A stretch of 13,467 nt of DNA, from positions 1 to 13,467 of the forward strand of contig JAUZPN010000085.1 of assembly GCA_030705885.1 (NCBI GenBank), given 5' to 3'. The position numbers and the translations under genes are program-made. Of the stretch, positions 2-8,743 are shown piece by piece. The notes beneath the pieces were generated by a model, which saw only the letters and a list, made by a program, of their open reading frames with translations, was not told where the DNA came from and made no database searches. Numbering within the stretch: the stretch's first letter is position 1; each line of letters begins with the position of its first letter. The DNA is from Bacillota bacterium. GTDB lineage: Bacteria > Bacillota > Clostridia > Clostridiales > Clostridiaceae.

Positions 2-1066
2 ACAGAAGTTCTTGGAATGGGACTTAAAGGTAATGGAACAATTCCAGCAGTATATTCAGAGAGAATTAAGCTTGCTAAGCATGCAGGAATGCAGATTATG
101 GATCTTGTTAATAAAGATATTAAGCCTAGAGATATCATGACAGAAGATGCGTTTAGAAATGCATTGACTATGGATATGGCTCTTGGATGCAGTACAAATA
201 GTATGCTTCATTTACCAGCAGTTGCTCATGAAGCTGGAGTTGAATTGAATATTGATATTGCTAATGAAATAAGCAGCAAGACACCTAATCTTTGTCATCT
301 TGCACCAGCAGGACATACTTATATGGAGGATTTAAATGAAGCTGGCGGAATTTATGCAGTAATGAATGAAATAAACAAATTAGGTTTATTAAAAACAGAT
401 TTAATCACATGTACAGGAAAAACAGTTGCTGAGAATATAAAGGGAGCTTATAATAAAAACCCTGAAGTTATCAGAACAGCTGAAAATCCATATAGCACAA
501 CTGGAGGCATAGCAGTTCTTAAAGGAAATCTTGCTCCAGATTCATGTGTTGTAAAGCGTTCAGCAGTAGCACCAGAAATGTTAAAGCATGAAGGACCTGC
601 TAGAGTATTTGATTGTGAAGAGGATGCACTAAATGCTATTAACACAGGTAAAATTGTTGATGGAGATGTAGTTGTAATAAGATATGAAGGTCCAAAAGGC
701 GGTCCTGGTATGAGAGAAATGCTTAATCCAACTTCTGCTATTATGGGAAGAGGTCTTGGAAGTACTGTAGCACTTATAACAGATGGACGTTTCAGCGGAG
801 CTTCAAGAGGTGCTTCTATAGGCCATGTTTCACCAGAAGCAGCAGTAGGAGGAAATATTGCTTTAGTTCAAGAAGGAGATATAATTCAAATTGACATAAC
901 AGCAAATACAATTAATTTTGTTATAAGCGATGAAGAATTAGAAAGAAGAAGATCTAAATGGAAGCCAAGACAGCCTAAAATTACTACAGGATATCTTGCA
1001 AGATATGCAGCTTTAGTAACTTCAGGTAATAGAGGAGCTATTTTAGAACTTCCAAAGAATAAATAA
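2..1066 (+). CDS. ilvD: Dihydroxy-acid dehydratase, C-terminal ~355 aa (5'-truncated by the window edge)
   Basis: The frame is open from nt 2 to the stop at 1064-1066. The translation contains IlvD/Edd family segments ([54 protein letters not shown]). A terminator hairpin follows. Confidence 0.9.
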
Positions 1067-1082
1067 AAAAATATGAAAAAAG

Positions 1083-1116
1083 AAGCTTTTCCGATGTTTT
1101 GGAAAGCTTCTTTTTA
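1083..1116. terminator. Bidirectional rho-independent terminator shared by convergent ilvD (+) and the WYL operon (-)
   Basis: AGAAGCTTTTCC / GGAAAGCTTCT inverted repeat with an 8-nt loop, flanked by an A-run on the left and a T-run on the right. It is positioned immediately after both stop codons. Confidence 0.55.
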
Positions 1117-2109
1117 TGGTATACTTTTATTTATCATACTTGAACTGAAAAGTTCTTTCTGCCTTATTAACCTTTCTTTAATTTTAATTAGAAAGCTTTC
1201 AGGACCTATTACTTTTATAACTGGACCAAAGGATAATATAGTAATTAGAAGTTCTGTTTCATCATGTTTGTCATAATAAATATAATTTATATATTTATCG
1301 CTGGTTTCATCATATTCTGTACGCTTTTCATAATTTGCAAAGTGCAGCATACATCTTTCAACAGCATTTCTTTCCTTTGATATTTCAATTACAACAGGCT
1401 CACTGCACTTGTTCATTTCTATATACTTTTCAAAGGAAATGCAGCCATCATAAATTTCTTGTGATGGTGATATAGTTGATATTCTTGAAATGTTTATTAT
1501 TGCAGAAGCTGTAATTTTACCATATTTAATTCTAACTGCATATAGTCTGAACTTATCATTTTTGCTGGAGTATTCTAATTTACAGGGTATAAAATTTCCA
1601 GTAATTCTTCCTGATTTTAAGCTTTCGAAAGAAATTGTTATAACCTTTTTGCTTTTTATTGCAGATAATATTTGATGAAAATTATTTATATAAGCTTCAT
1701 CTGAATAATTATCTCCATCACTGAAAGTATCAAAATAATAAAAGTCTTCCATATTAAATAATGGCTCAACATCTTTAAGCTGTTCTTTTAAATATTCAAT
1801 ATCATTGTTCCCTAAAAAGAGTAGTATTCTTTTGTCGGTTAACAATGCTTTTATCCAGGATTTTTCTAATATAGTTAGTGGCATTTTAATGTTACCATTT
1901 ATTTTGGAAAGATATTTATTATCGTGTTTTTCAAACAAATTCCATTCATTATTTATAAACTTTGGCAAAACATAAAAAGCACTTTCAGAGAAAGCACCAT
2001 CTTCAATAATTTTAGACATCATTTCTTCAGTAATTGGATTGTGTGCTTCTTTTAAAATGTTAGAAACAACTGTATAATAGCAACTGTAAATTTCAGAAAA
2101 TAGCTCCAT
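1114..2109 (-). CDS. HTH-WYL-WCX family transcription regulator (PafC-like paralog, 331 aa)
   Basis: It has a WYL-type core (KFRLYAVRIKYGKITASAIINISRISTI, matching the ..rwYLvay..-..FRLdRI.. pattern). The C-terminus has a WCX-like extension (ELLITILSFGPVIKVIGPESFLIKIKERLIRQKEL). The ATG lies 3 bp downstream of the stop of the upstream paralog, so translation is coupled. Confidence 0.6.
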   Translation of the reverse strand: MELFSEIYSCYYTVVSNILKEAHNPITEEMMSKIIEDGAFSESAFYVLPKFINNEWNLFEKHDNKYLSKINGNIKMPLTILEKSWIKALLTDKRILLFLGNNDIEYLKEQLKDVEPLFNMEDFYYFDTFSDGDNYSDEAYINNFHQILSAIKSKKVITISFESLKSGRITGNFIPCKLEYSSKNDKFRLYAVRIKYGKITASAIINISRISTISPSQEIYDGCISFEKYIEMNKCSEPVVIEISKERNAVERCMLHFANYEKRTEYDETSDKYINYIYYDKHDETELLITILSFGPVIKVIGPESFLIKIKERLIRQKELFSSSMINKSIP

Positions 2110-2112
2110 AGT

Positions 2113-3345
2113 TTAATCAACTCCATACATGTTAAACATTCTATTTATATCACGGTATAGCTTTTGTTCTATAGTTTTGTTTGAGCATTCAAATGAAACT
2201 ATTCTGCCAATAAAACTCTTAATCCAAGGAAGAACTTCATTTCCATCGAATACCTCCTTAGCGTATATATATAAATTAGGTTCCAGCCTTTCAACTGTAC
2301 CATTCATACCTTCGAGTTTTAACCTATTTATAATATAAGATTCAAGTTCTTCATCAATGTATAGCTTCATTTTCAATATGCTGCCTCTGGAATTGTTACC
2401 AAATGAAACCCCCCAGCATTTATCTAAATTATTATTTAATCTTGATGTATAGAGATCATAATTTTCACATTTATTAAGTATTTCAACTGATTTAATATAA
2501 TCGAGCCTGTAATTTACAAATCTCTTTCTTGCTTCATTATAAATAGCAATATACCTACGCCCGGTTCTGCTGCTTATAAATATTTTAAGTGGGATGCCTT
2601 CATATTTTAGTATCAATTCAGTTTTAATACTTTGATTGATAAAACTTATTCTTTTCTTTGTTTTTATAGCTTCTAAAATATTATAAAGAATTTTATCCTC
2701 TAAAGTATGTACAATATAATTATGTTTAAAAATAAAAATGCTGTTTTTTTCATTTTCATTAGACATAAGGTAGCTGCCAATAACTCCAAAAGGAGCAGTG
2801 CCCTGGTAATATTTTATGGCATTTAATAAAGCTTCAGAGTTTACTGATATATTTGAAATATATTGTTTTGATAAACTATAATGCAAAGCTTTACCTGTTT
2901 TGCAGGCTGTAAGAATTCCATCCTTTACATATTCATTAGCTTTTATCCTTACAGTTTGTATATCAAAACAAATATCACTTTTTTTACATATATTATTTGT
3001 AATTTCATCAGCTGTAAGACAGGAGCTTGTACTTAATGTATCCAATATATAAAAATGAAGCATTATATCATTGGAGGTAAAGCTTTTTGATCTCCAAGCA
3101 TAGTAAAAAGGGTTTTCACTTATTTTTGAACTGTCAAGGCTTATAAAAACACGCTTGCCTCCCTTAAAGTTTTCCCATTTTATATAATTTCCAAGATAAC
3201 TTTCAATTCTTCTCTTTTCATTATCATAAGTTCGGCAGCTCTTTTTTGTAAAGTCTTTTCTTGTTTTAAAACCATAAATATAAAAATCGCGCATATAATC
3301 TCTTATTTTATCAAAGTTCTTAACTAGTTCTGAAAACTCAGCCAT
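2113..3345 (-). CDS. HTH-WYL-WCX family transcription regulator with N-terminal extension (PafB-like paralog, 410 aa)
   Basis: It has a strong WYL signature (GRRYIAIYNEARKRFVNYRLDYIKSVEIL). A WCX-like C-terminus is present (LPWIKSFIGRIVSFECSNKTIEQKLYRDI). A DeoR/HTH_11-like segment is present (KKSCRTYDNEKRRIESYL; ILDTLSTSSCLTADEITNNI). An SD-like AAGGCGGTG sits 6 nt upstream of the ATG at 3345. Confidence 0.6.
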   Translation of the reverse strand: MAEFSELVKNFDKIRDYMRDFYIYGFKTRKDFTKKSCRTYDNEKRRIESYLGNYIKWENFKGGKRVFISLDSSKISENPFYYAWRSKSFTSNDIMLHFYILDTLSTSSCLTADEITNNICKKSDICFDIQTVRIKANEYVKDGILTACKTGKALHYSLSKQYISNISVNSEALLNAIKYYQGTAPFGVIGSYLMSNENEKNSIFIFKHNYIVHTLEDKILYNILEAIKTKKRISFINQSIKTELILKYEGIPLKIFISSRTGRRYIAIYNEARKRFVNYRLDYIKSVEILNKCENYDLYTSRLNNNLDKCWGVSFGNNSRGSILKMKLYIDEELESYIINRLKLEGMNGTVERLEPNLYIYAKEVFDGNEVLPWIKSFIGRIVSFECSNKTIEQKLYRDINRMFNMYGVD

Positions 3346-3411
3346 ATTTTCACCGCCTTTTTAACTAATTTGAACTAACCATCCATGATGGTGGCAGCAT
3401 AACCACGAATA

Positions 3412-3432
3412 AAAATGGTGACAAGCCATTTT
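3412..3432. promoter_or_regulatory. Candidate dimeric-regulator operator (perfect 7-N7-7 inverted repeat), proximal copy
   Basis: AAAATGGtgacaagCCATTTT lies about 65 bp upstream of the WYL operon start codon. Its centre is about 62 bp (roughly 6 helical turns) from the second copy at 3474-3494. Confidence 0.35.
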
Positions 3433-3473
3433 CTAATTAACCACCCATGTTGGCTGCAGCACAACCACGGATA

Positions 3474-3494
3474 AAAATTGCAGCAAGCTATTTT
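3474..3494. promoter_or_regulatory. Candidate operator, distal copy (imperfect inverted repeat)
   Basis: AAAATTGcagcaagCTATTTT has one arm mismatch and occupies the same position within repeat unit 2. Confidence 0.3.
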
Positions 3495-3720
3495 TTAATT
3501 AAATATTATAAGGGAAGCATAGATTATAGGTATAATTTTAGCAGTTTAGTGCAATAAAAACAATTAGTGAGTTAATTTCGCAACTTTTTTTATATGATAA
3601 AATTATTTGCTTATGGTAATATTTATCCATGGAAGGTGAGAAAAATAATTCCATAATAAAATGTTCTCTTACTATGTTTGATAACAAAGTTTTACTAAAT
3701 TATTAAAATAAGATTTTGTC

Positions 3721-3768
3721 CGATATCATTTATAAATTAAATTGAACTAAATGTGACGAGGAAAGTAT
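3721..3768 (+). repeat. Partial copy (right ~48 bp) of the ~103-bp inverted-repeat element
   Basis: cgatatcatttataaattaaattgaactaaatgtgacgaggaaagtat aligns with the right half of the copies at 5065-5167 and 8502-8604. Confidence 0.55.
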
Positions 3769-3772
3769 GATT
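3743..3772 (+). promoter_or_regulatory. Sigma-A-like promoter for rtcB embedded in the partial element (TTGAAC-N18-TATGAT)
   Basis: -35 TTGAAC is at 3743-3748, followed by an 18-bp spacer and -10 TATGAT at 3767-3772, which is 45 bp upstream of the rtcB ATG. Relative to the full copies (TGGAAC-N19), this copy has a G-to-T change that improves the -35 and a 1-bp shorter spacer. Confidence 0.4.
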
Positions 3773-3816
3773 AAATGTAGCCAAACAAAGTATACTTAAA
3801 GAAAGGAAGTGTCTAA

Positions 3817-5049
3817 ATGTTTGTTATAAACAATGAACAAACTAAAAAACCAATAAAAATATGGCTGGAAAATGAAGAAAGTTTAGAGGATACTTGTCTA
3901 GAACAAGCATATAAATTATCACAGCTGCCATTTATTCATAAATGGGTAGCACTTATGCCTGATACTCATGCTGGAATGGGTATGCCTATAGGCGGAGTAA
4001 TTGCTTGTAAAAATGTTATTATCCCAAATGCAGTAGGAGTAGATATAGGATGTGGTATGTCTTTCATTGGTACAGATATTAAAGTAGATGATATAAAAGG
4101 TATAACTACACCAAATGGAAGTTTGTTTAAAGGAATTATTGGTGATATTTTAAGAAATGTACCTGTTGGCTTTGCTCATCATAAAACAGCAAAACCATGC
4201 GATGCATTAGATAGAGCAAAAGAAGAAATGGATAAATACAAAAGTCAGCCTGAATTAACTGGTCAAATAGAGGATGGATATTTTCAGGTAGGAACTTTAG
4301 GAGGAGGAAATCATTTTATTGAAATACAGGAAGATGAAGAAGGTTGTCTTGGAATAATGCTTCATTCAGGAAGTCGTAATTTTGGTAAACGTATATGTGA
4401 TTATTTCAATAAAGCTGCTAAAGAGCTAAATGAAAAATGGTATTCTAAAGTACCTCCAGAAGATAGATTAGCTTTTCTTCCAGCAGACACAAAGGAAGGA
4501 ATTGACTATATAAACTGGATGAATCTAGCCTTAGATTTTGCAAAAGAGAATAGAGATAGTATGATGGTAGAAATAAAAAATGTTCTAGAAAAATGGATAA
4601 GTAAATATACTAAGATTAAATTTAAATATACTATAGAAGTAAACTGCCACCATAATTATGCTAGTATTGAAAACCATTATGACAGCAATGTATGGGTTCA
4701 CAGAAAAGGGGCAATAAGAGCAAGAGAAGGAGAAATTGGAATAATACCAGGGGCTATGGGGTCTTACAGCTATATTGTTATAGGTAAAGGAAATCAGGAA
4801 AGCTTCTATTCATGTTCTCATGGTGCAGGAAGACGATACTCAAGGAAAGCAGCAATGGAAAACTTTACAGTAGAACAAGTTATGCTGGATTTAAAACAGC
4901 AAAATGTTGTCCTTGGTAAAACATCTAAAAAGGATGTACCTGAGGAAAGCAGATTTGCTTATAAAGATATTGAAGAAGTAATGAAATCTCAAACAGAATT
5001 AGTTACTCCAATTAAAAGACTCAAAACATTGGGAGTGGTTAAGGGATAA
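3817..5049 (+). CDS. rtcB: RtcB family RNA 3'-phosphate (2',3'-cyclic phosphate) to 5'-OH RNA ligase, 410 aa
   Basis: Metal/GTP-site motifs of RtcB are present: DTHAGMGMPIGG, GCGMSF (Cys), GGGNHFIEIQ, HSGSRNFG, NCHHNYA, SHGAGR. Size is bacterial-type (~408 aa). RBS AAAGGAAG lies 8 nt upstream. Confidence 0.92.
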   Translation: MFVINNEQTKKPIKIWLENEESLEDTCLEQAYKLSQLPFIHKWVALMPDTHAGMGMPIGGVIACKNVIIPNAVGVDIGCGMSFIGTDIKVDDIKGITTPNGSLFKGIIGDILRNVPVGFAHHKTAKPCDALDRAKEEMDKYKSQPELTGQIEDGYFQVGTLGGGNHFIEIQEDEEGCLGIMLHSGSRNFGKRICDYFNKAAKELNEKWYSKVPPEDRLAFLPADTKEGIDYINWMNLALDFAKENRDSMMVEIKNVLEKWISKYTKIKFKYTIEVNCHHNYASIENHYDSNVWVHRKGAIRAREGEIGIIPGAMGSYSYIVIGKGNQESFYSCSHGAGRRYSRKAAMENFTVEQVMLDLKQQNVVLGKTSKKDVPEESRFAYKDIEEVMKSQTELVTPIKRLKTLGVVKG

Positions 5050-5064
5050 TATATTTATTATAAG

Positions 5065-5167
5065 TATACTATCCTCGGTCACAAAGTTCCAATAAATTTC
5101 CAAAAGAAGCTTCACCTCGCTATCATTTACAAATTAATTGGAACTAAATGTGTCCGAGGAAAGTATA
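5065..5167 (+). mobile_element. ~103-bp MITE-like element with imperfect 19-bp terminal inverted repeats, copy B
   Basis: TIRs are TATACTATCCTCGGTCACA ... TGTGTCCGAGGAAAGTATA. A nested inner inverted repeat is present (AGTTCCAATAAATT ... AATTAATTGGAACT). It is about 93% identical to the copy at 8502-8604. The right end carries TGGAAC-N19-TATAAA, an outward promoter-like module. Confidence 0.55.
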
Positions 5168-5330
5168 AATAAGATTATTACAGATTTGACAAGTGTCATC
5201 TGTTTAATATAACTGAAATTTTTTATGCTAAGGCTTATGATGCCTTGCGGTGCTTGAGTCTATGACGATAAAGTATACCGAAATTTCAGGTTTTGTTGTG
5301 AATGACGAAGGTTCGATTCCTTTATTGCCA

Positions 5331-5403
5331 TGTGCAATTAGCTCAGAGGTAGAGCATCACCAGATTAAATTGGATTTTGGAGGTTCGAATCCCCCACAAA
5401 GAC
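5331..5403 (+). ncRNA. tRNA-like element: canonical D-arm and T-arm, degenerate anticodon and acceptor regions (tRNA mimic or tRNA-Lys/Asn-derived pseudogene)
   Basis: The D-arm GCTC-AGAGGTA-GAGC is at 5341-5355, preceded by T8-A9. The T-arm GGAGG-TTCGAAT-CCCCC is at 5379-5395 with one stem mismatch. The anticodon-arm position (TCACC-AGATTAA-ATTGG) cannot form a 5-bp stem. The 5' and 3' acceptor strands are not complementary, and there is no encoded CCA. The anticodon-arm 3' half resembles tRNA-Lys(UUU) (TCAATTGG vs TAAATTGG). A further T-arm-like fragment (GAAGG-TTCGATT-CCTTT, 5308-5324) and a GC-rich 5-bp hairpin (AAGGC-ttatgat-GCCTT, 5230-5246) lie upstream. Confidence 0.5.
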
Positions 5404-5418
5404 TTTCCCGTCTTTTTT
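5398..5418 (+). terminator. Small rho-independent terminator closing the tRNA-like transcription unit
   Basis: AAAGAC-tttccc-GTCTTT is followed by TTT. The stem is weak and AT-rich. Confidence 0.35.
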
Positions 5419-5462
5419 AATATTTTAATACCTATGAACGCAGCCTGCTGTGTTTATAACAT

Positions 5463-5482
5463 AACTGCAGCCTGCAGTTTTT
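5463..5482 (+). terminator. Second terminator-like hairpin (AACTGC-agcct-GCAGTT + TTTTT)
   Basis: The hairpin contains two PstI palindromes (CTGCAGCCTGCAG) followed by a T-run. It is preceded by a near-duplicate GCAGCCTGCTG motif at 5441-5452. Confidence 0.3.
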
Positions 5483-5709
5483 AAGATATCACTGTTTGTA
5501 TTTTACTTTCATTTCTTAGGCAGAAATCTTAATTTATACTATGTTTAGTCATGAAATTTCAATAAATTTCAGCTATACATAGTACAATTAGATAACATAA
5601 GGAACCAAAGTAATTTACAACAGCTCAATTTAAACTCCGCTTCAGTTATGTGGTATTAAGATATAGTTCTAAGCTATAAATTAAAGTATCTAAAAAGGGG
5701 TTGTTAAAG

Positions 5710-6810
5710 ATGGATCATATTATAAATGAAAATCAGAGAGGTTATTTGTTTAGAAATGGATGCTTTGTAAAACTATTATCATCAGGAAAATACAACTTTC
5801 CAAGATTTCTTGGATATAGAGTTGAAAGTGCATTGATAAACGATGAAGCTATTTCAGCAAGTGTTAATATAAATGTACTCTTAAAAGATAAATTATTTTC
5901 AAAAAGCATAACTAGTATAATGGTGGTTGATAACAAAATAGCTGTTCACTTTATAAATGGAAGAATAAAAAATATATTGCAGAGCGGAGAGTATTATTTC
6001 TGGAATATTTTTAATAAGCATACTTTTGAAATAATTGATATGTCAAGTACTGAAGTTTCAAAGGAAATAGATAGAACAATTTTTAATTATATTCCTATAA
6101 AGTATTATACAAAAATAATAGTACCTGATGGACAAAAAGCAATATTATATTTTGATGGAAAGCTTAACAAAGAACTTAGCTGTGGCACTTATTTTTACTG
6201 GAATGTTAAAGAACAAGTATCATATCAGCTTGTAGATATGAGGCTTCAGCAACTTGAAATTTCAGGGCAGGAAATATTAACTACAGATAAGGTAAGTCTT
6301 AGAATCAATTTTAACTGCATTTATAGAATAAAGAATGCTGTTAAAATATTATCTGAAATAAGAGATTATAAGGTTCAGATTTACAGTCTTATTCAGCTTG
6401 TTCTTAGAGAATATGTTGGAGGCTTTAAATTTGATGAGCTTTTAGATCAAAAGGAAGAAATTGCAGCATTTGTGCTTACTAAATTGAAAGAAAAACAGGA
6501 TGAATATTTTATAGAATTTACTACTGCAGGTATAAAGGATATTATACTTCCAGGCGAAATTAAAGAAATTATGAATACAGTACTTATTGCAGAAAAGACA
6601 GCACAGGCAAATGTAATAACAAGGCGTGAAGAGGTTGCATCTACTAGAAGCCTTTTAAATACTGCAAAGCTTATGGATGAAAACAAAACTCTATACAAGC
6701 TCAAGGAAATGGAGTATATTCAAAAAATATGTGATAAGGTTGGAAGTATATCATTAGGCGGCGGAGAAAATCTCTTGAACCAGCTTAACGAATTGCTGTG
6801 CCAGAAATAA
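5710..6810 (+). CDS. SPFH/band-7 domain protein (YdjI/COG4260-like) with a triplicated N-terminal beta-repeat
   Basis: The central region resembles the SPFH fold (QEILTTDKVSLRINFNCIYRIKNAVKILSEIRDYKVQIYSLIQLVLREYVGGFKFDELL), followed by a coiled-coil-like tail. Three N-terminal repeats match G-x-Y-x-F/Y-W-N...VE/D (res 29-45, 95-112, 161-178). I chose the ATG at 5710 with GGGG 9 nt upstream. The ORF track begins at TTG 5701. Confidence 0.65.
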   Translation: MDHIINENQRGYLFRNGCFVKLLSSGKYNFPRFLGYRVESALINDEAISASVNINVLLKDKLFSKSITSIMVVDNKIAVHFINGRIKNILQSGEYYFWNIFNKHTFEIIDMSSTEVSKEIDRTIFNYIPIKYYTKIIVPDGQKAILYFDGKLNKELSCGTYFYWNVKEQVSYQLVDMRLQQLEISGQEILTTDKVSLRINFNCIYRIKNAVKILSEIRDYKVQIYSLIQLVLREYVGGFKFDELLDQKEEIAAFVLTKLKEKQDEYFIEFTTAGIKDIILPGEIKEIMNTVLIAEKTAQANVITRREEVASTRSLLNTAKLMDENKTLYKLKEMEYIQKICDKVGSISLGGGENLLNQLNELLCQK

Positions 6811-6862
6811 ACAGGATATCTTAAATATTTTTAATTGTATAAGCTGATTAAAAAATCTCATG

Positions 6863-8194: not shown

Positions 8195-8350
8195 GAATGG
8201 TTAATTTATAAATGATAACGGAGAGAATCTTCTTTACAGAAGTTTAGCAGAACTTTGTGACTAGAGATAGTATAAATTAAAGCTGTGAGCAGGAAAAGTA
8301 CTAAAAATTGATACTTAAAGAGAGTGGGGTTAGGTGGAAACCCATAGTAA
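8195..8350 (+). promoter_or_regulatory. T-box riboswitch-like leader, Stem I region plus first T-box-like sequence
   Basis: GGAGAGA is followed by AUC (Ile codon, 8227-8229). The segment CUAGAGAUAGUAUAAAUUAAAGCUGUGAGCAGG resembles the conserved distal Stem I platform of T-boxes (cf. glyQS CUAGGAUAGUGAAAGCUAGAGG). UUAGGUGGAAACCC at 8330-8343 resembles the T-box consensus UUAGGGUGGNACC. No terminator follows this copy. Confidence 0.4.
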
Positions 8351-8501
8351 GTTTTTAGGAAAATCACCTGGGAGTGGAAAGCTGAATAGTAAACTCATGT
8401 TAATTGGATATTTTATAATACATTTTTCTTGAATATATTTAATTTATAAATAACAGCATAGAGAAGATTTTTAAAATTAATGAGATTTTGTGTTTAATAG
8501 A

Positions 8502-8604
8502 TATACTATCCTCAGTCACAAAGTTCCAATAAATTTCTAAAAGAAACTTCACATCGCTATCATTTAAAAATTAATTGGAACTAAATGTGACCAAGGAAAG
8601 TATA
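8502..8604 (+). mobile_element. ~103-bp MITE-like inverted-repeat element, copy C, inside the ileS 5' leader
   Basis: It is about 93% identical to copy B, with TIRs TATACTATCCTCAGTCACA ... TGTGACCAAGGAAAGTATA. The right end carries TGGAAC-N19-TATAAT pointing at ileS. Confidence 0.55.
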
Positions 8605-8689
8605 ATAATAGTCCAAATTTAAGAGTTTTAGTAGGTGCATCCGTAATCCTGCGTTAAGGGATAGAGTATGTTAGTGCTTGAAAAAATGC

Positions 8690-8743
8690 TGTTTTAGGTG
8701 GTTTTGTGAAGTTAGCTTCATCCTATTAGGATGGAGCTTTTTT
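8690..8743 (+). terminator. T-box-type antiterminator/terminator attenuator immediately upstream of ileS
   Basis: A second TTAGGTGG (8694-8701) is followed by terminator AGCTTCATCC-tatta-GGATGGAGCT and TTTTT (8714-8743). The T-box-like sequence overlaps the 5' arm of the terminator, as expected for mutually exclusive folds. ileS starts at 8818. Confidence 0.5.

Follow-up and report, generated by a model that had tools for sequence, protein, structure and literature searches.

According to a prediction made by Burroughs and Aravind in 2016, the RNA ligase RtcB is encoded in some bacteria beside a Band-7 protein and a tRNA-like noncoding RNA, the b7a-tRNA. In the part relied on here, the preprint that relates this prediction states that the b7a-tRNA "strongly resembles an authentic tRNA" and that the YrlA RNA occasionally adjoins Band-7, and it describes all of this as lacking experimental validation (bioRxiv 10.1101/312249). 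The same part of that source notes that rsr, the Ro60 gene of Salmonella, is co-encoded with the RNAs YrlA and YrlB, and that the crystal structure of YrlA has the topology of a circularly permuted tRNA (bioRxiv 10.1101/312249). In the portions drawn on, papers from the Aravind laboratory that cite the 2016 work add the predictions that WYL-domain factors sense cyclic-end RNA and regulate RNA-repair pathways, and that ROT/TROVE proteins with a tRNA-like partner form an RNA-repair platform. The locus described here lies in a stretch of 13,467 nt, referred to as the window, on contig JAUZPN010000085.1 (assembly GCA_030705885.1) from the Clostridiaceae. It combines rtcB, a soluble SPFH/Band-7 gene, two structured RNAs between them (RNA1 and RNA2), and two WYL-type regulator genes, P2 and P1, that diverge from rtcB. 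On balance it is probable that positions 1114–6810 of the window make up one conserved RNA-repair module of the Clostridia. The preliminary description had ended the module at 5418, which is too short, as RNA2 and the Band-7 gene belong to it as well.

The kind of system was predicted already in 2016 from genome data, and the regulator pair, the promoter box and RNA2 appear to be undescribed. A full-text search of the literature returned no account of a WYL pair of two genes accompanying rtcB and Band-7, of the 21-bp box described below, of the 5' domain of RNA1 or of RNA2, with the 2016 work known only second-hand. The earlier view that the arrangement was uncharacterized thus holds in part: the association of RtcB, Band-7 and a tRNA-like RNA had been predicted and WYL proteins had been linked to RNA repair, while the WYL pair and its box are undescribed in the literature found.

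The arrangement is conserved well beyond the window. One genome per GTDB species was scanned, a relative of P2 was found in 502 genomes and 80 loci were retrieved, to which three more were added through exact-protein look-ups; individual loci are cited by an L number. Gene content was scored by tblastn with the window proteins; the census of neighbors covers the 61 loci whose sequence extends 4.5 kb or more upstream of P2, and the adjacency of the two regulator genes was judged in the 77 loci with enough sequence. P1 directly follows P2 in 77/77 loci, and in 58/61 the pair sits beside rtcB, Band-7 and/or a gene for a DUF2828/DUF7788 protein. The most frequent combination is rtcB with Band-7 (29/61), followed by rtcB alone (11/61), DUF2828/DUF7788 alone (8/61), Band-7 alone (7/61) and rtcB with DUF2828 (3/61); three of the 61 loci have none of these genes. 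Altogether, Band-7 is present in 36/61 loci and DUF2828/DUF7788 in 11/61. The DUF2828 protein matches PHROG 850, annotated "RNA-binding protein," with an E value of 1e-127, and it has no sequence match in the PDB. The pair is found mainly in Clostridiaceae, Lachnospiraceae and Oscillospiraceae. A phage origin of the pair is unsupported, as no relatives of P2 were found on viral contigs. The neighbor census and this lack of viral relatives together indicate that, throughout the Clostridia, the WYL pair is chromosomal and dedicated to RNA-repair genes, and the conservation anticipated in the preliminary description is borne out.

Individual loci show how the module can be rearranged. In Clostridium acetobutylicum (L003, 5287–9222) the pair forms the distal part of an rtcB2–prfH–P2–P1 operon beside a divergent rtcB–RNA–Band-7 unit. 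The 21-bp box stays with the latter unit in this case, and the arrangement ties the pair to the ribosome-rescue RtcB2–PrfH module. Two other loci carry signs of decay or remodeling of rtcB. Only about the first 70 rtcB codons remain between the box promoter and RNA1 in L004 (~6650–6860), and in L005 (4881–6524) a 547-amino-acid open reading frame (ORF) begins like RtcB, then diverges, and has no Pfam match.

In the window, the ORF listing leaves a gene-free stretch of about 650 nt between rtcB and the Band-7 gene, and this stretch holds both RNAs. RNA1 opens with a 5' domain, a three-helix junction with the near-invariant single strands YAUGC, UGCGGUGC and GUAUNCCGR. Of the 18 pairs of this domain, 15 show compensatory changes in RNAalifold. 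Covariance model (CM) R1 recovers 39 copies, in which 93.9% of the alignment cells are paired as compared with 35–48% in controls where the alignment was slid. The second part of RNA1 is a tRNA-like module that reads, in order, a GUGA strand, a 5-nt "variable loop," the T arm, a closed acceptor hairpin, UA, the D arm, A and a UCAC strand, where the GUGA and UCAC strands form an anticodon-stem-like helix that closes the module. A rule-based search found this module in 38 loci, and CM R2, built from 34 copies, gives 58 matches at E ≤ 1.4e-5, all of them on the sense strand and beside Band-7 or DUF2828. In the R2 alignment (~58–71 copies, 16 modeled pairs), 95.5% of cells are paired versus 38–49% when slid by 1–3 columns, and there are 309 double-change cells; all four helices show compensatory changes, those of the closed acceptor hairpin and of the anticodon-like stem among them.

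At curated thresholds Rfam reports nothing in the window, and in the RNA regions of 10 relatives it reports only partial tRNA matches and no YrlA. At a relaxed threshold the YrlA family matches 5277–5384 with 42.2 bits (E 5.8e-8), below its curated cut-off of 69 bits. The Y-RNA-like character suggested in the preliminary description is upheld to that extent, and, as judged from its covarying fold, RNA1 is not a tRNA but a mimic of one, circularly permuted and YrlA-like. A closing 5'/3' stem, the Ro60-binding module, was not found in RNA1 of the window, where a 5' domain complete in itself precedes the module and a second T arm follows it.

The distribution of RNA1 identifies the gene that it accompanies. 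The tRNA-like module occurs in 34/36 Band-7 loci and 6/11 DUF2828 loci, and the 5' domain occurs in 30/36 Band-7 loci and in 0/25 others (0/11 with DUF2828, 0/14 with neither). Because the tRNA-like module is missing from 14/14 loci that lack both Band-7 and DUF2828, 11 of which carry rtcB, RNA1 is to be seen as the partner of the scaffold protein. It had been proposed as an RNA dedicated to rtcB, and this does not hold. The 5' domain of RNA1 and RNA2 are specific to Band-7 loci, an arrangement that mirrors Ro60 with YrlA and YrlB.

The ends and the number of units in RNA1 differ among relatives. Where the window has a small 5' hairpin with TTGACA in its loop, relatives have a short GC–GNRA–GC hairpin and an AUAUA box. 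At the site of the terminal hairpin, relatives have a sequence-conserved RAC–CUNNNAA–GUY hairpin that forms the 3' end of RNA1. A strict search finds the anticodon-like form of this hairpin in 9 loci and a looser one in about 18–21, and the window copy is noncanonical, with the 6-nt loop UUUCCC. In approximately 18 Band-7 loci, RNA1 ends in a look-alike of an anticodon stem-loop, with a stem of 4–5 bp and a 7-nt loop of the form CU-NNN-AA; the triplets are GUC (8), UCC (3), GCU (2) and CUC/UUC (4). These loci include L001 (~5205–5221, minus strand), L003, L007, L008, L011, L013, L014, L017, L028, L051 and L055. Judging by sequence, such a hairpin could be a mimic of the targets of anticodon nucleases.

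Chains of two to four tRNA-like units are found in L020 (5200–5450), L022, L018, L049 and L012 (minus strand). A closed acceptor-like hairpin links each T arm to the D arm of the following unit, and the chains can be read as permuted YrlA-like modules or as acceptor-less tRNAs, with Rfam alternating between YrlA-like and tRNA matches. Parts of L020, L049 and L018 pass the Rfam tRNA threshold, as with L020 5291–5353 at 40.3 bits, and a unit of this type may be what was named b7a-tRNA. The RNA of a DUF2828 locus, L033, scores 42.1 bits as YrlA and has a simple closing 5'/3' stem. Also beside DUF2828, L071 (3148–3454) and L076 (4597–4756, minus strand) carry closely spaced arrays of tRNAs with a canonical look, which ARAGORN reads as Gln-Met-Phe-His, with spacers of 1–9 nt. 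Within the arrays, one tRNA and its successor have complementary acceptor strands, the 3' strand in the first and the 5' strand in the second.

RNA2 follows RNA1 and is a rod-like RNA of about 190–250 nt. It is closed by a helix of UUAAUACC (5425–5432) with GGUAUUAA (5652–5659) and has conserved internal-loop strands that include GGAUACCG and CCCGCA. Compensatory changes were found in 31 of its 34 pairs (RNAalifold, 15 sequences), and the RNA2 alignment has 89.9% of cells paired versus 35–45% in slid controls, with 433 double-change cells. CM R3 matches 39 loci (among L003–L082), and Band-7 is present in all of them. RNA2 has no match in Rfam 15. Two roles are conceivable for it, as a partner RNA like YrlB or as a leader that acts in cis.

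A role as a cis-regulatory leader, riboswitch-like or protein-binding, that acts on translation of Band-7 is quite possible, if short of probable. The distance from the closing helix to the start of Band-7 is short and fairly constant, at 27–45 nt in most of the loci examined (~45 nt in the window), and RNA2 is always immediately upstream of Band-7 and never found without it. However, the rod shape and the conserved internal loops resemble those of protein-binding RNAs such as Y RNAs, as expected for a trans-acting part of a ribonucleoprotein. The position of the Shine-Dalgarno sequence outside the conserved helices and the co-encoding of Salmonella rsr with two Y RNAs point the same way, without being decisive.

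P2 and P1 are the second conserved feature of the locus. The two genes are separated by 3 nt in the window, and both diverge from rtcB. Sequence-only searches are weak for these proteins, so fold prediction was needed to establish their architecture. P2 matches the Pfam WYL domain (PF13280) at residues 219–289 with 23.4 bits (cut-off 21.8), and P1 itself has no match in Pfam or NCBIfam. In phmmer searches neither protein has a significant match in the PDB, and family profiles give only marginal matches there, to BrxR and PafBC; the P1 profile matches BrxR 7qfz over 145–232 and, marginally, PafBC 6sj9 at 274–318. The families comprise 1681 homologs for P2 and 885 for P1, many of which NCBI calls "WYL domain-containing," and PF13280 is present in some P1 homologs. 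Only the WYL barrel aligns between P1 and P2 (BLASTP E 0.02; E 0.003 in an hhalign profile comparison), and on sequence the two families are no more than distant relatives.

AlphaFold (AF2) models built from the family alignments have a predicted local distance difference test (pLDDT) score of 64 for P2 and 81 for P1. Foldseek searches of the PDB give the same top list for both models, namely DriD, PafBC, BrxR and CapW. For P2, E values range from 1.4e-9 to 1e-7, led by DriD 8tpk (1.4e-9) and PafBC 9fnd (3.2e-9); for P1, DriD 8tp8 is matched at E 3.8e-10 with a template-modeling (TM) score of 0.52 over 338 columns. Within these full-length matches, the helix-turn-helix (HTH) regions (P2 91–158, P1 ~28–68) align to the HTH of DriD and PafBC. 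The confidently modeled C-terminal alpha/beta domains (P2 320–407, P1 239–328) fall inside the alignments to the C domain of DriD and to PafBC. The layout of P2 is an N-terminal extension of about 90 additional residues, poorly modeled, followed by a winged HTH (~91–158), the WYL domain (219–292) and the WCX domain (~320–407). The barrel has conserved basic residues: G262, R263 and R264 of P2 are invariant and Y265 nearly so, and in P1 F187 and R188 are invariant and K186 nearly so. The shared top list indicates that both proteins are full-length HTH-WYL-WCX regulators of the PafBC/DriD class, as far as the models can tell. The preliminary description had read tandem minus-strand HTH-WYL-WCX genes here, divergent from rtcB, and the predicted folds, with E values of about 1e-9 to DriD and PafBC, agree. 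The Pfam matches that it expected were found for the WYL domain of P2 and not for P1, with the predicted folds supplying the HTH, WYL and WCX assignments.

The promoter facing rtcB contains a conserved, non-palindromic 21-bp box, TTCGCAA(A)CTTTTTTAAATGA. With up to four mismatches allowed, the box is found in 54 of 61 loci with enough upstream sequence, one per locus and directed toward the target gene in every case. It travels with rtcB or DUF2828 where these genes are located away from P2 (L003, L067, L075 and L071). A poor hexamer, ATGAnn, stands at the −35 position, which coincides with the 3' end of the box, and a sigma-A-type −10 follows, its TAnnnT hexamer beginning exactly 19 nt past the box in 68/75 scored cases and carrying a TG extension in 48/78. 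A reading of the box as an ECF-sigma (extracytoplasmic function) or sigma-54 element was dropped, as what lies at the fixed distance of 19 nt is a TAnnnT −10, in many cases TG-extended. We infer that the box is the operator of a P2/P1 heterodimer. In three loci (L045 6831–6892, L059 6903–6964 and L070 1891–1952) a second, degenerate copy lies in tandem exactly 41 nt upstream, a spacing that hints at cooperative binding of two regulator dimers.

The same control region of the window also holds two 62-nt direct repeats. This tandem lies just upstream of the P2 start, has an internal CCATC-ATG-GATGG-like symmetry, and may belong to the P2 promoter region or be a further repeat element. The divergent spacers of related loci are mostly 100–220 nt long, and the 62-nt repeats are absent from those inspected. 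They were rejected as an operator on the grounds of being lineage-specific. The phased repeats pointed out in the preliminary description are thus present in the window, and the element that is conserved among relatives is the 21-bp box.

PafB and PafC act at an asymmetric promoter element, and P2 and P1 may pair in the same manner, as a heterodimer on the asymmetric 21-bp box. Their WYL domains would bind a single-stranded nucleic-acid damage signal, most plausibly RNA fragments or nicked tRNA with 2',3'-cyclic-phosphate and 5'-OH ends. The bound ligand would then turn the promoter on in the style of DriD or of PafBC class II promoters, and the pair would limit its own divergent transcription. 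RtcB, made from the same transcription unit as the RNAs and Band-7, would reseal cleaved RNAs. Band-7, RNA1 and RNA2 could assemble into a ribonucleoprotein scaffold, the counterpart of Ro60 with YrlA and YrlB. Its tRNA-shaped module might recruit to the ligase either factors that handle tRNA or damaged tRNA-like substrates.

Several points weigh against this scheme. The structurally characterized WYL regulators bind single-stranded DNA (ssDNA), not RNA, according to the PDB titles of the DriD and CapW matches, and the ligand of PafBC is ssDNA. Binding of the pair to the box, formation of the heterodimer and the nature of the ligand are all things that we infer, and the P2 model is of moderate confidence with residues 1–90 unresolved. 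Because 11/61 loci carry rtcB with neither the RNAs nor a scaffold gene, the ribonucleoprotein is dispensable for the pairing of regulator and ligase. In the window itself RNA1 lies between a repeat-borne promoter-like sequence on its 5' side and a weak hairpin and U tract on its 3' side, so transcription there may differ from that in relatives. The remaining points concern the promoter. The box contains the −35 element, so the 19-nt spacing could reflect promoter geometry alone; a site over the −35 fits a repressor equally well, and the repressors BrxR and CapW are also strong fold matches.

The pair may instead be a repressor of the BrxR/CapW type that sits on the box and blocks RNA polymerase until a ligand releases it, a reading that is possible and somewhat unlikely. 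Beyond the fold matches and the covered −35, it draws on the local and divergent placement of the regulator, as in BrxR and CapW systems, and on the TG-extended −10, which could work without an activator. In short spacers, such as the 111 nt of L020, where 13 nt separate the box from the start of P2, a bound protein would block P2 transcription as well. On the other hand, the top-ranked folds of both proteins are the activators DriD and PafBC, and the poor −35 hexamer hints that the promoter needs an activator. As in PafBC-dependent promoters, the site is asymmetric and always faces its target, while homodimeric repressors usually use palindromes. Activation is rated only modestly above repression because occlusion of the −35 fits the same data.

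Sensing of ssDNA or DNA damage, as by PafBC and DriD, would make the rtcB/Band-7 operon an arm of a response to DNA damage or phage attack. DriD and CapW were solved with bound ssDNA, as their PDB titles state, and the rtc operon of Salmonella is induced in the SOS response via prophage genes, as given in the part of the source used (PMC9879122). Against this, all conserved targets of the pair are RNA-related, being rtcB, rtcB2–prfH, and Band-7 or DUF2828 with tRNA-like RNAs, and DNA-repair genes are not conserved in related loci. The Aravind-laboratory reviews, in the portions drawn on, also predict that WYL factors sense cyclic-end RNA. Taken together, sensing of DNA damage is judged unlikely, and cyclic-end RNA is preferred as the signal.

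The transcription of RNA1 bears on whether the locus works as one unit. In relatives, RNA1 begins 10–40 nt past the rtcB stop with no second 21-bp box before it. The box promoter lies directly before RNA1 in Band-7-only loci, and RNA1 starts about 12–20 nt after the −10 in L008. The short distance from the rtcB stop makes co-transcription likelier than a separate RNA gene, and the simplest reading of the sequences is that rtcB, RNA1, RNA2 and band7 would be made as one transcription unit from which the RNAs are processed out.

A separate RNA1 gene of about 240 nt with its own promoter and terminator, acting as a decoy, substrate or ligand specific to rtcB and the WYL pair, is improbable by comparison. 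Two promoter-like sequences, TTGGAAC-N19-TATAAA (5131–5165) and TTGACA-N16-TATAAC (5187–5214), precede RNA1 in the window, and a hairpin with a U6 tract (5398–5418) follows it. However, the first of these belongs to the palindromic repeat copy at 5065–5170, a repeat also found before ileS, and a start from the TTGACA promoter would remove the covarying closing helix of the 5' domain. A promoter and terminator scan of 3300–5750 found no terminator and did not list the TTGACA promoter. Nor does the RNA follow rtcB, as it is absent in rtcB-only loci and present in Band-7-only loci. The promoter-like module and terminator that had been taken to bound the unit were not confirmed; the former is the end of a copy of a dispersed repeat, and the TTGACA lies in the loop of the small 5' hairpin.

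Next to no credence is given to an ordinary or decaying tRNA gene without a function of its own, since, in spite of the canonical T-loop and D-loop sequences and the tRNA-level Rfam scores in relatives such as L020, ARAGORN finds 0 tRNA genes in the window, the Rfam tRNA match is partial (5338–5396, 24 bits versus a cut-off of 29), the arms are permuted around a closed acceptor with four covarying helices, and position and strand are fixed relative to Band-7 or DUF2828, all in agreement with the original reading of a segment with D and T arms that is not a normal tRNA.

A bolder extension of the preferred scheme is a long shot. Band-7, RNA1 and RNA2 would here form a new, Ro-independent "Y-like" ribonucleoprotein whose tRNA mimic serves as a sentinel; a cut by an anticodon nuclease would yield a 2',3'-cyclic-phosphate end that is read by the WYL heterodimer and switches on rtcB. 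If true, the locus would be a self-contained circuit for sensing and repairing RNA damage with a dedicated decoy.

Features of the window, with the evidence for each
Feature	Position	Strand	Evidence or remark
ilvD, 3' end	17–1066	+	ORF listing and Pfam
P1, 331-aa predicted HTH-WYL-WCX regulator, second gene of the pair	1114–2109	−	Predicted fold
P2, 410-aa predicted HTH-WYL-WCX regulator	2113–3345	−	Pfam WYL, E 5.8e-5, and predicted fold
Two 62-nt direct repeats, 79% identical	3373–3434, 3435–3496		Lineage-specific
21-bp box, overlapping the −35 region	3577–3597	+	TTCGCAACTTTTTTTATATGA
TG-extended −10 of the rtcB operon promoter	3614–3622	+	TGGTAATAT
Palindromic repeat, diverged copy	3668–3774		In the rtcB 5' untranslated region
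rtcB, RNA ligase	3817–5049	+	Pfam PF01139 (RtcB), E 9e-114
Palindromic repeat copy	5065–5170		Between rtcB and RNA1; ~90% identical to the 8502–8606 copy
Small 5' hairpin before RNA1, TTGACA in loop	5180–5203	+	Read from sequence
RNA1 5' domain, three-helix junction	5212–5290	+	CM R1, 65.3 bits, E 1e-16
RNA1 permuted tRNA-like module	5299–5363	+	Rfam YrlA, 42.2 bits, E 5.8e-8; CM R2, 63.6 bits
RNA1 T arm	5307–5323		GAAGG-UUCGAUU-CCUUU
RNA1 closed acceptor-like hairpin	5324–5338		AUUGC-CAUGU-GCAAU
RNA1 D arm	5341–5355		GCUC-AGAGGUA-GAGC
Second T arm	5379–5395	+	Read from sequence
Terminal hairpin and U tract, weak 6-bp stem	5398–5418	+	AAAGAC-UUUCCC-GUCUUU; read from sequence
RNA2, rod-like structured RNA	5421–5663	+	CM R3, 62.6 bits
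Palindromic repeat, partial copy	5535–~5600		In the apical part of RNA2
Soluble SPFH/Band-7 gene	5710–6810	+	Pfam PF01145 (Band_7), E 4.3e-28
Palindromic repeat copy	8502–8606		In the ileS leader

The gene order of the window was taken from the ORF listing and Pfam. The Band-7 start is likely the ATG at 5710, and the ORF tool places a TTG start at 5701; by eye, the translation has no N-terminal hydrophobic stretch. Past Band-7, the window encodes an Rce1-like protease, ileS (start 8818) and a rhomboid protein.

The 13 kb of the window contain four copies of a palindromic repeat of about 105 nt with terminal inverted repeats of about 30 nt (TATACTaTCCTCGGTCACAaAGTTCCAAT ... ATTGGAACTaaATGTGnCCGAGGAaAGTATA). 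All four lie in noncoding leaders or in variable stretches of structured RNAs, and the end of the repeat resembles a −10. It looks like an element of the MITE (miniature inverted-repeat transposable element) or REP (repetitive extragenic palindromic) type. As a dispersed element that is also found before ileS, it was rejected as an operator. The insertion of this repeat at several sites makes the window atypical compared with its relatives. The T-box leader of ileS is matched in two pieces, 8276–8385 and 8565–8728, with 67 and 20 bits, under the Rfam threshold, and one copy of the repeat lies between or over these pieces. The ileS leader appears either to tolerate the insertion or to have been split by it.

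Work on the substrates and induction of bacterial RtcB and on the role of Y-like RNAs has been confined almost entirely to the RtcR/Ro60 system of proteobacteria. The module would be a second, independent solution, present in at least about 500 species of Clostridia, among them the tractable C. acetobutylicum and C. pasteurianum. It touches on the substrates of bacterial RtcB, on the signal that induces it and on the role of Y-like RNAs that mimic tRNA. It also lets one ask if a WYL protein reads RNA damage, if Band-7 is an RNA scaffold equivalent to Ro60 and what the tRNA mimic contributes. The module is also a source of candidate new RNA families, which are not in Rfam 15.

Among known systems, the predicted association of RtcB, Band-7 and b7a-tRNA is matched by RtcB, Band-7 and a tRNA-like noncoding RNA between them, with all three in 29/61 loci. 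In the predicted system Band-7 and Ro/TROVE-type proteins are interchangeable partners of tRNA-like RNAs, which would correspond here to the division into Band-7 loci and DUF2828 loci. In contrast to b7a-tRNA, as it is known from a secondary summary, RNA1 is permuted like YrlA and has a covarying 5' domain. The present loci also differ from the predicted system in having RNA2 and a WYL pair with a defined promoter box.

The WYL proteins have their own set of relatives. Like PafBC and DriD, P2 and P1 are predicted to be HTH-WYL-WCX over their full length, and as with PafB and PafC the two chains are encoded side by side; the promoter element, which is asymmetric and takes up the −35 region ahead of a normal −10, may be another likeness to PafBC. 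The differences are an identity of only 8–16% in the Foldseek alignments, the N-terminal extension of P2 and a role as a local regulator of RNA repair instead of a global regulator of the DNA-damage response. With BrxR and CapW the pair shares the fold and the placement of the regulator beside the system controlled. Those regulators are single-gene homodimers that act at palindromic sites in anti-phage systems, whereas here there are two chains, an asymmetric site and RNA repair.

The Salmonella rsr–yrlBA–rtcBA locus with RtcR has the same overall logic: a ligase is encoded with an RNA-binding scaffold protein and a pair of structured RNAs, of which one mimics tRNA and has a closed acceptor stem, and a dedicated ligand-sensing regulator is divergently transcribed. 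The components differ. A Pfam scan of the eight main ORFs of the window found no RtcR, sigma-54 activator domain, rtcA or Ro60/TROVE; the promoter is of the sigma-A type, with a WYL pair as regulator and an SPFH/Band-7 protein as scaffold. RNA1 scores 42 bits against the Rfam YrlA cut-off of 69 and does not have the terminal 5'/3' Ro60-binding stem of Salmonella YrlA. Because RtcR, the sigma-54 domain and rtcA are absent from these ORFs, the WYL pair in the regulatory place of RtcR, as first suggested from the sequence, is a reasonable reading. By analogy with the Salmonella system, Band-7 would replace Ro60, the PafBC-like WYL pair would replace RtcR, and the RNA domains would be new.

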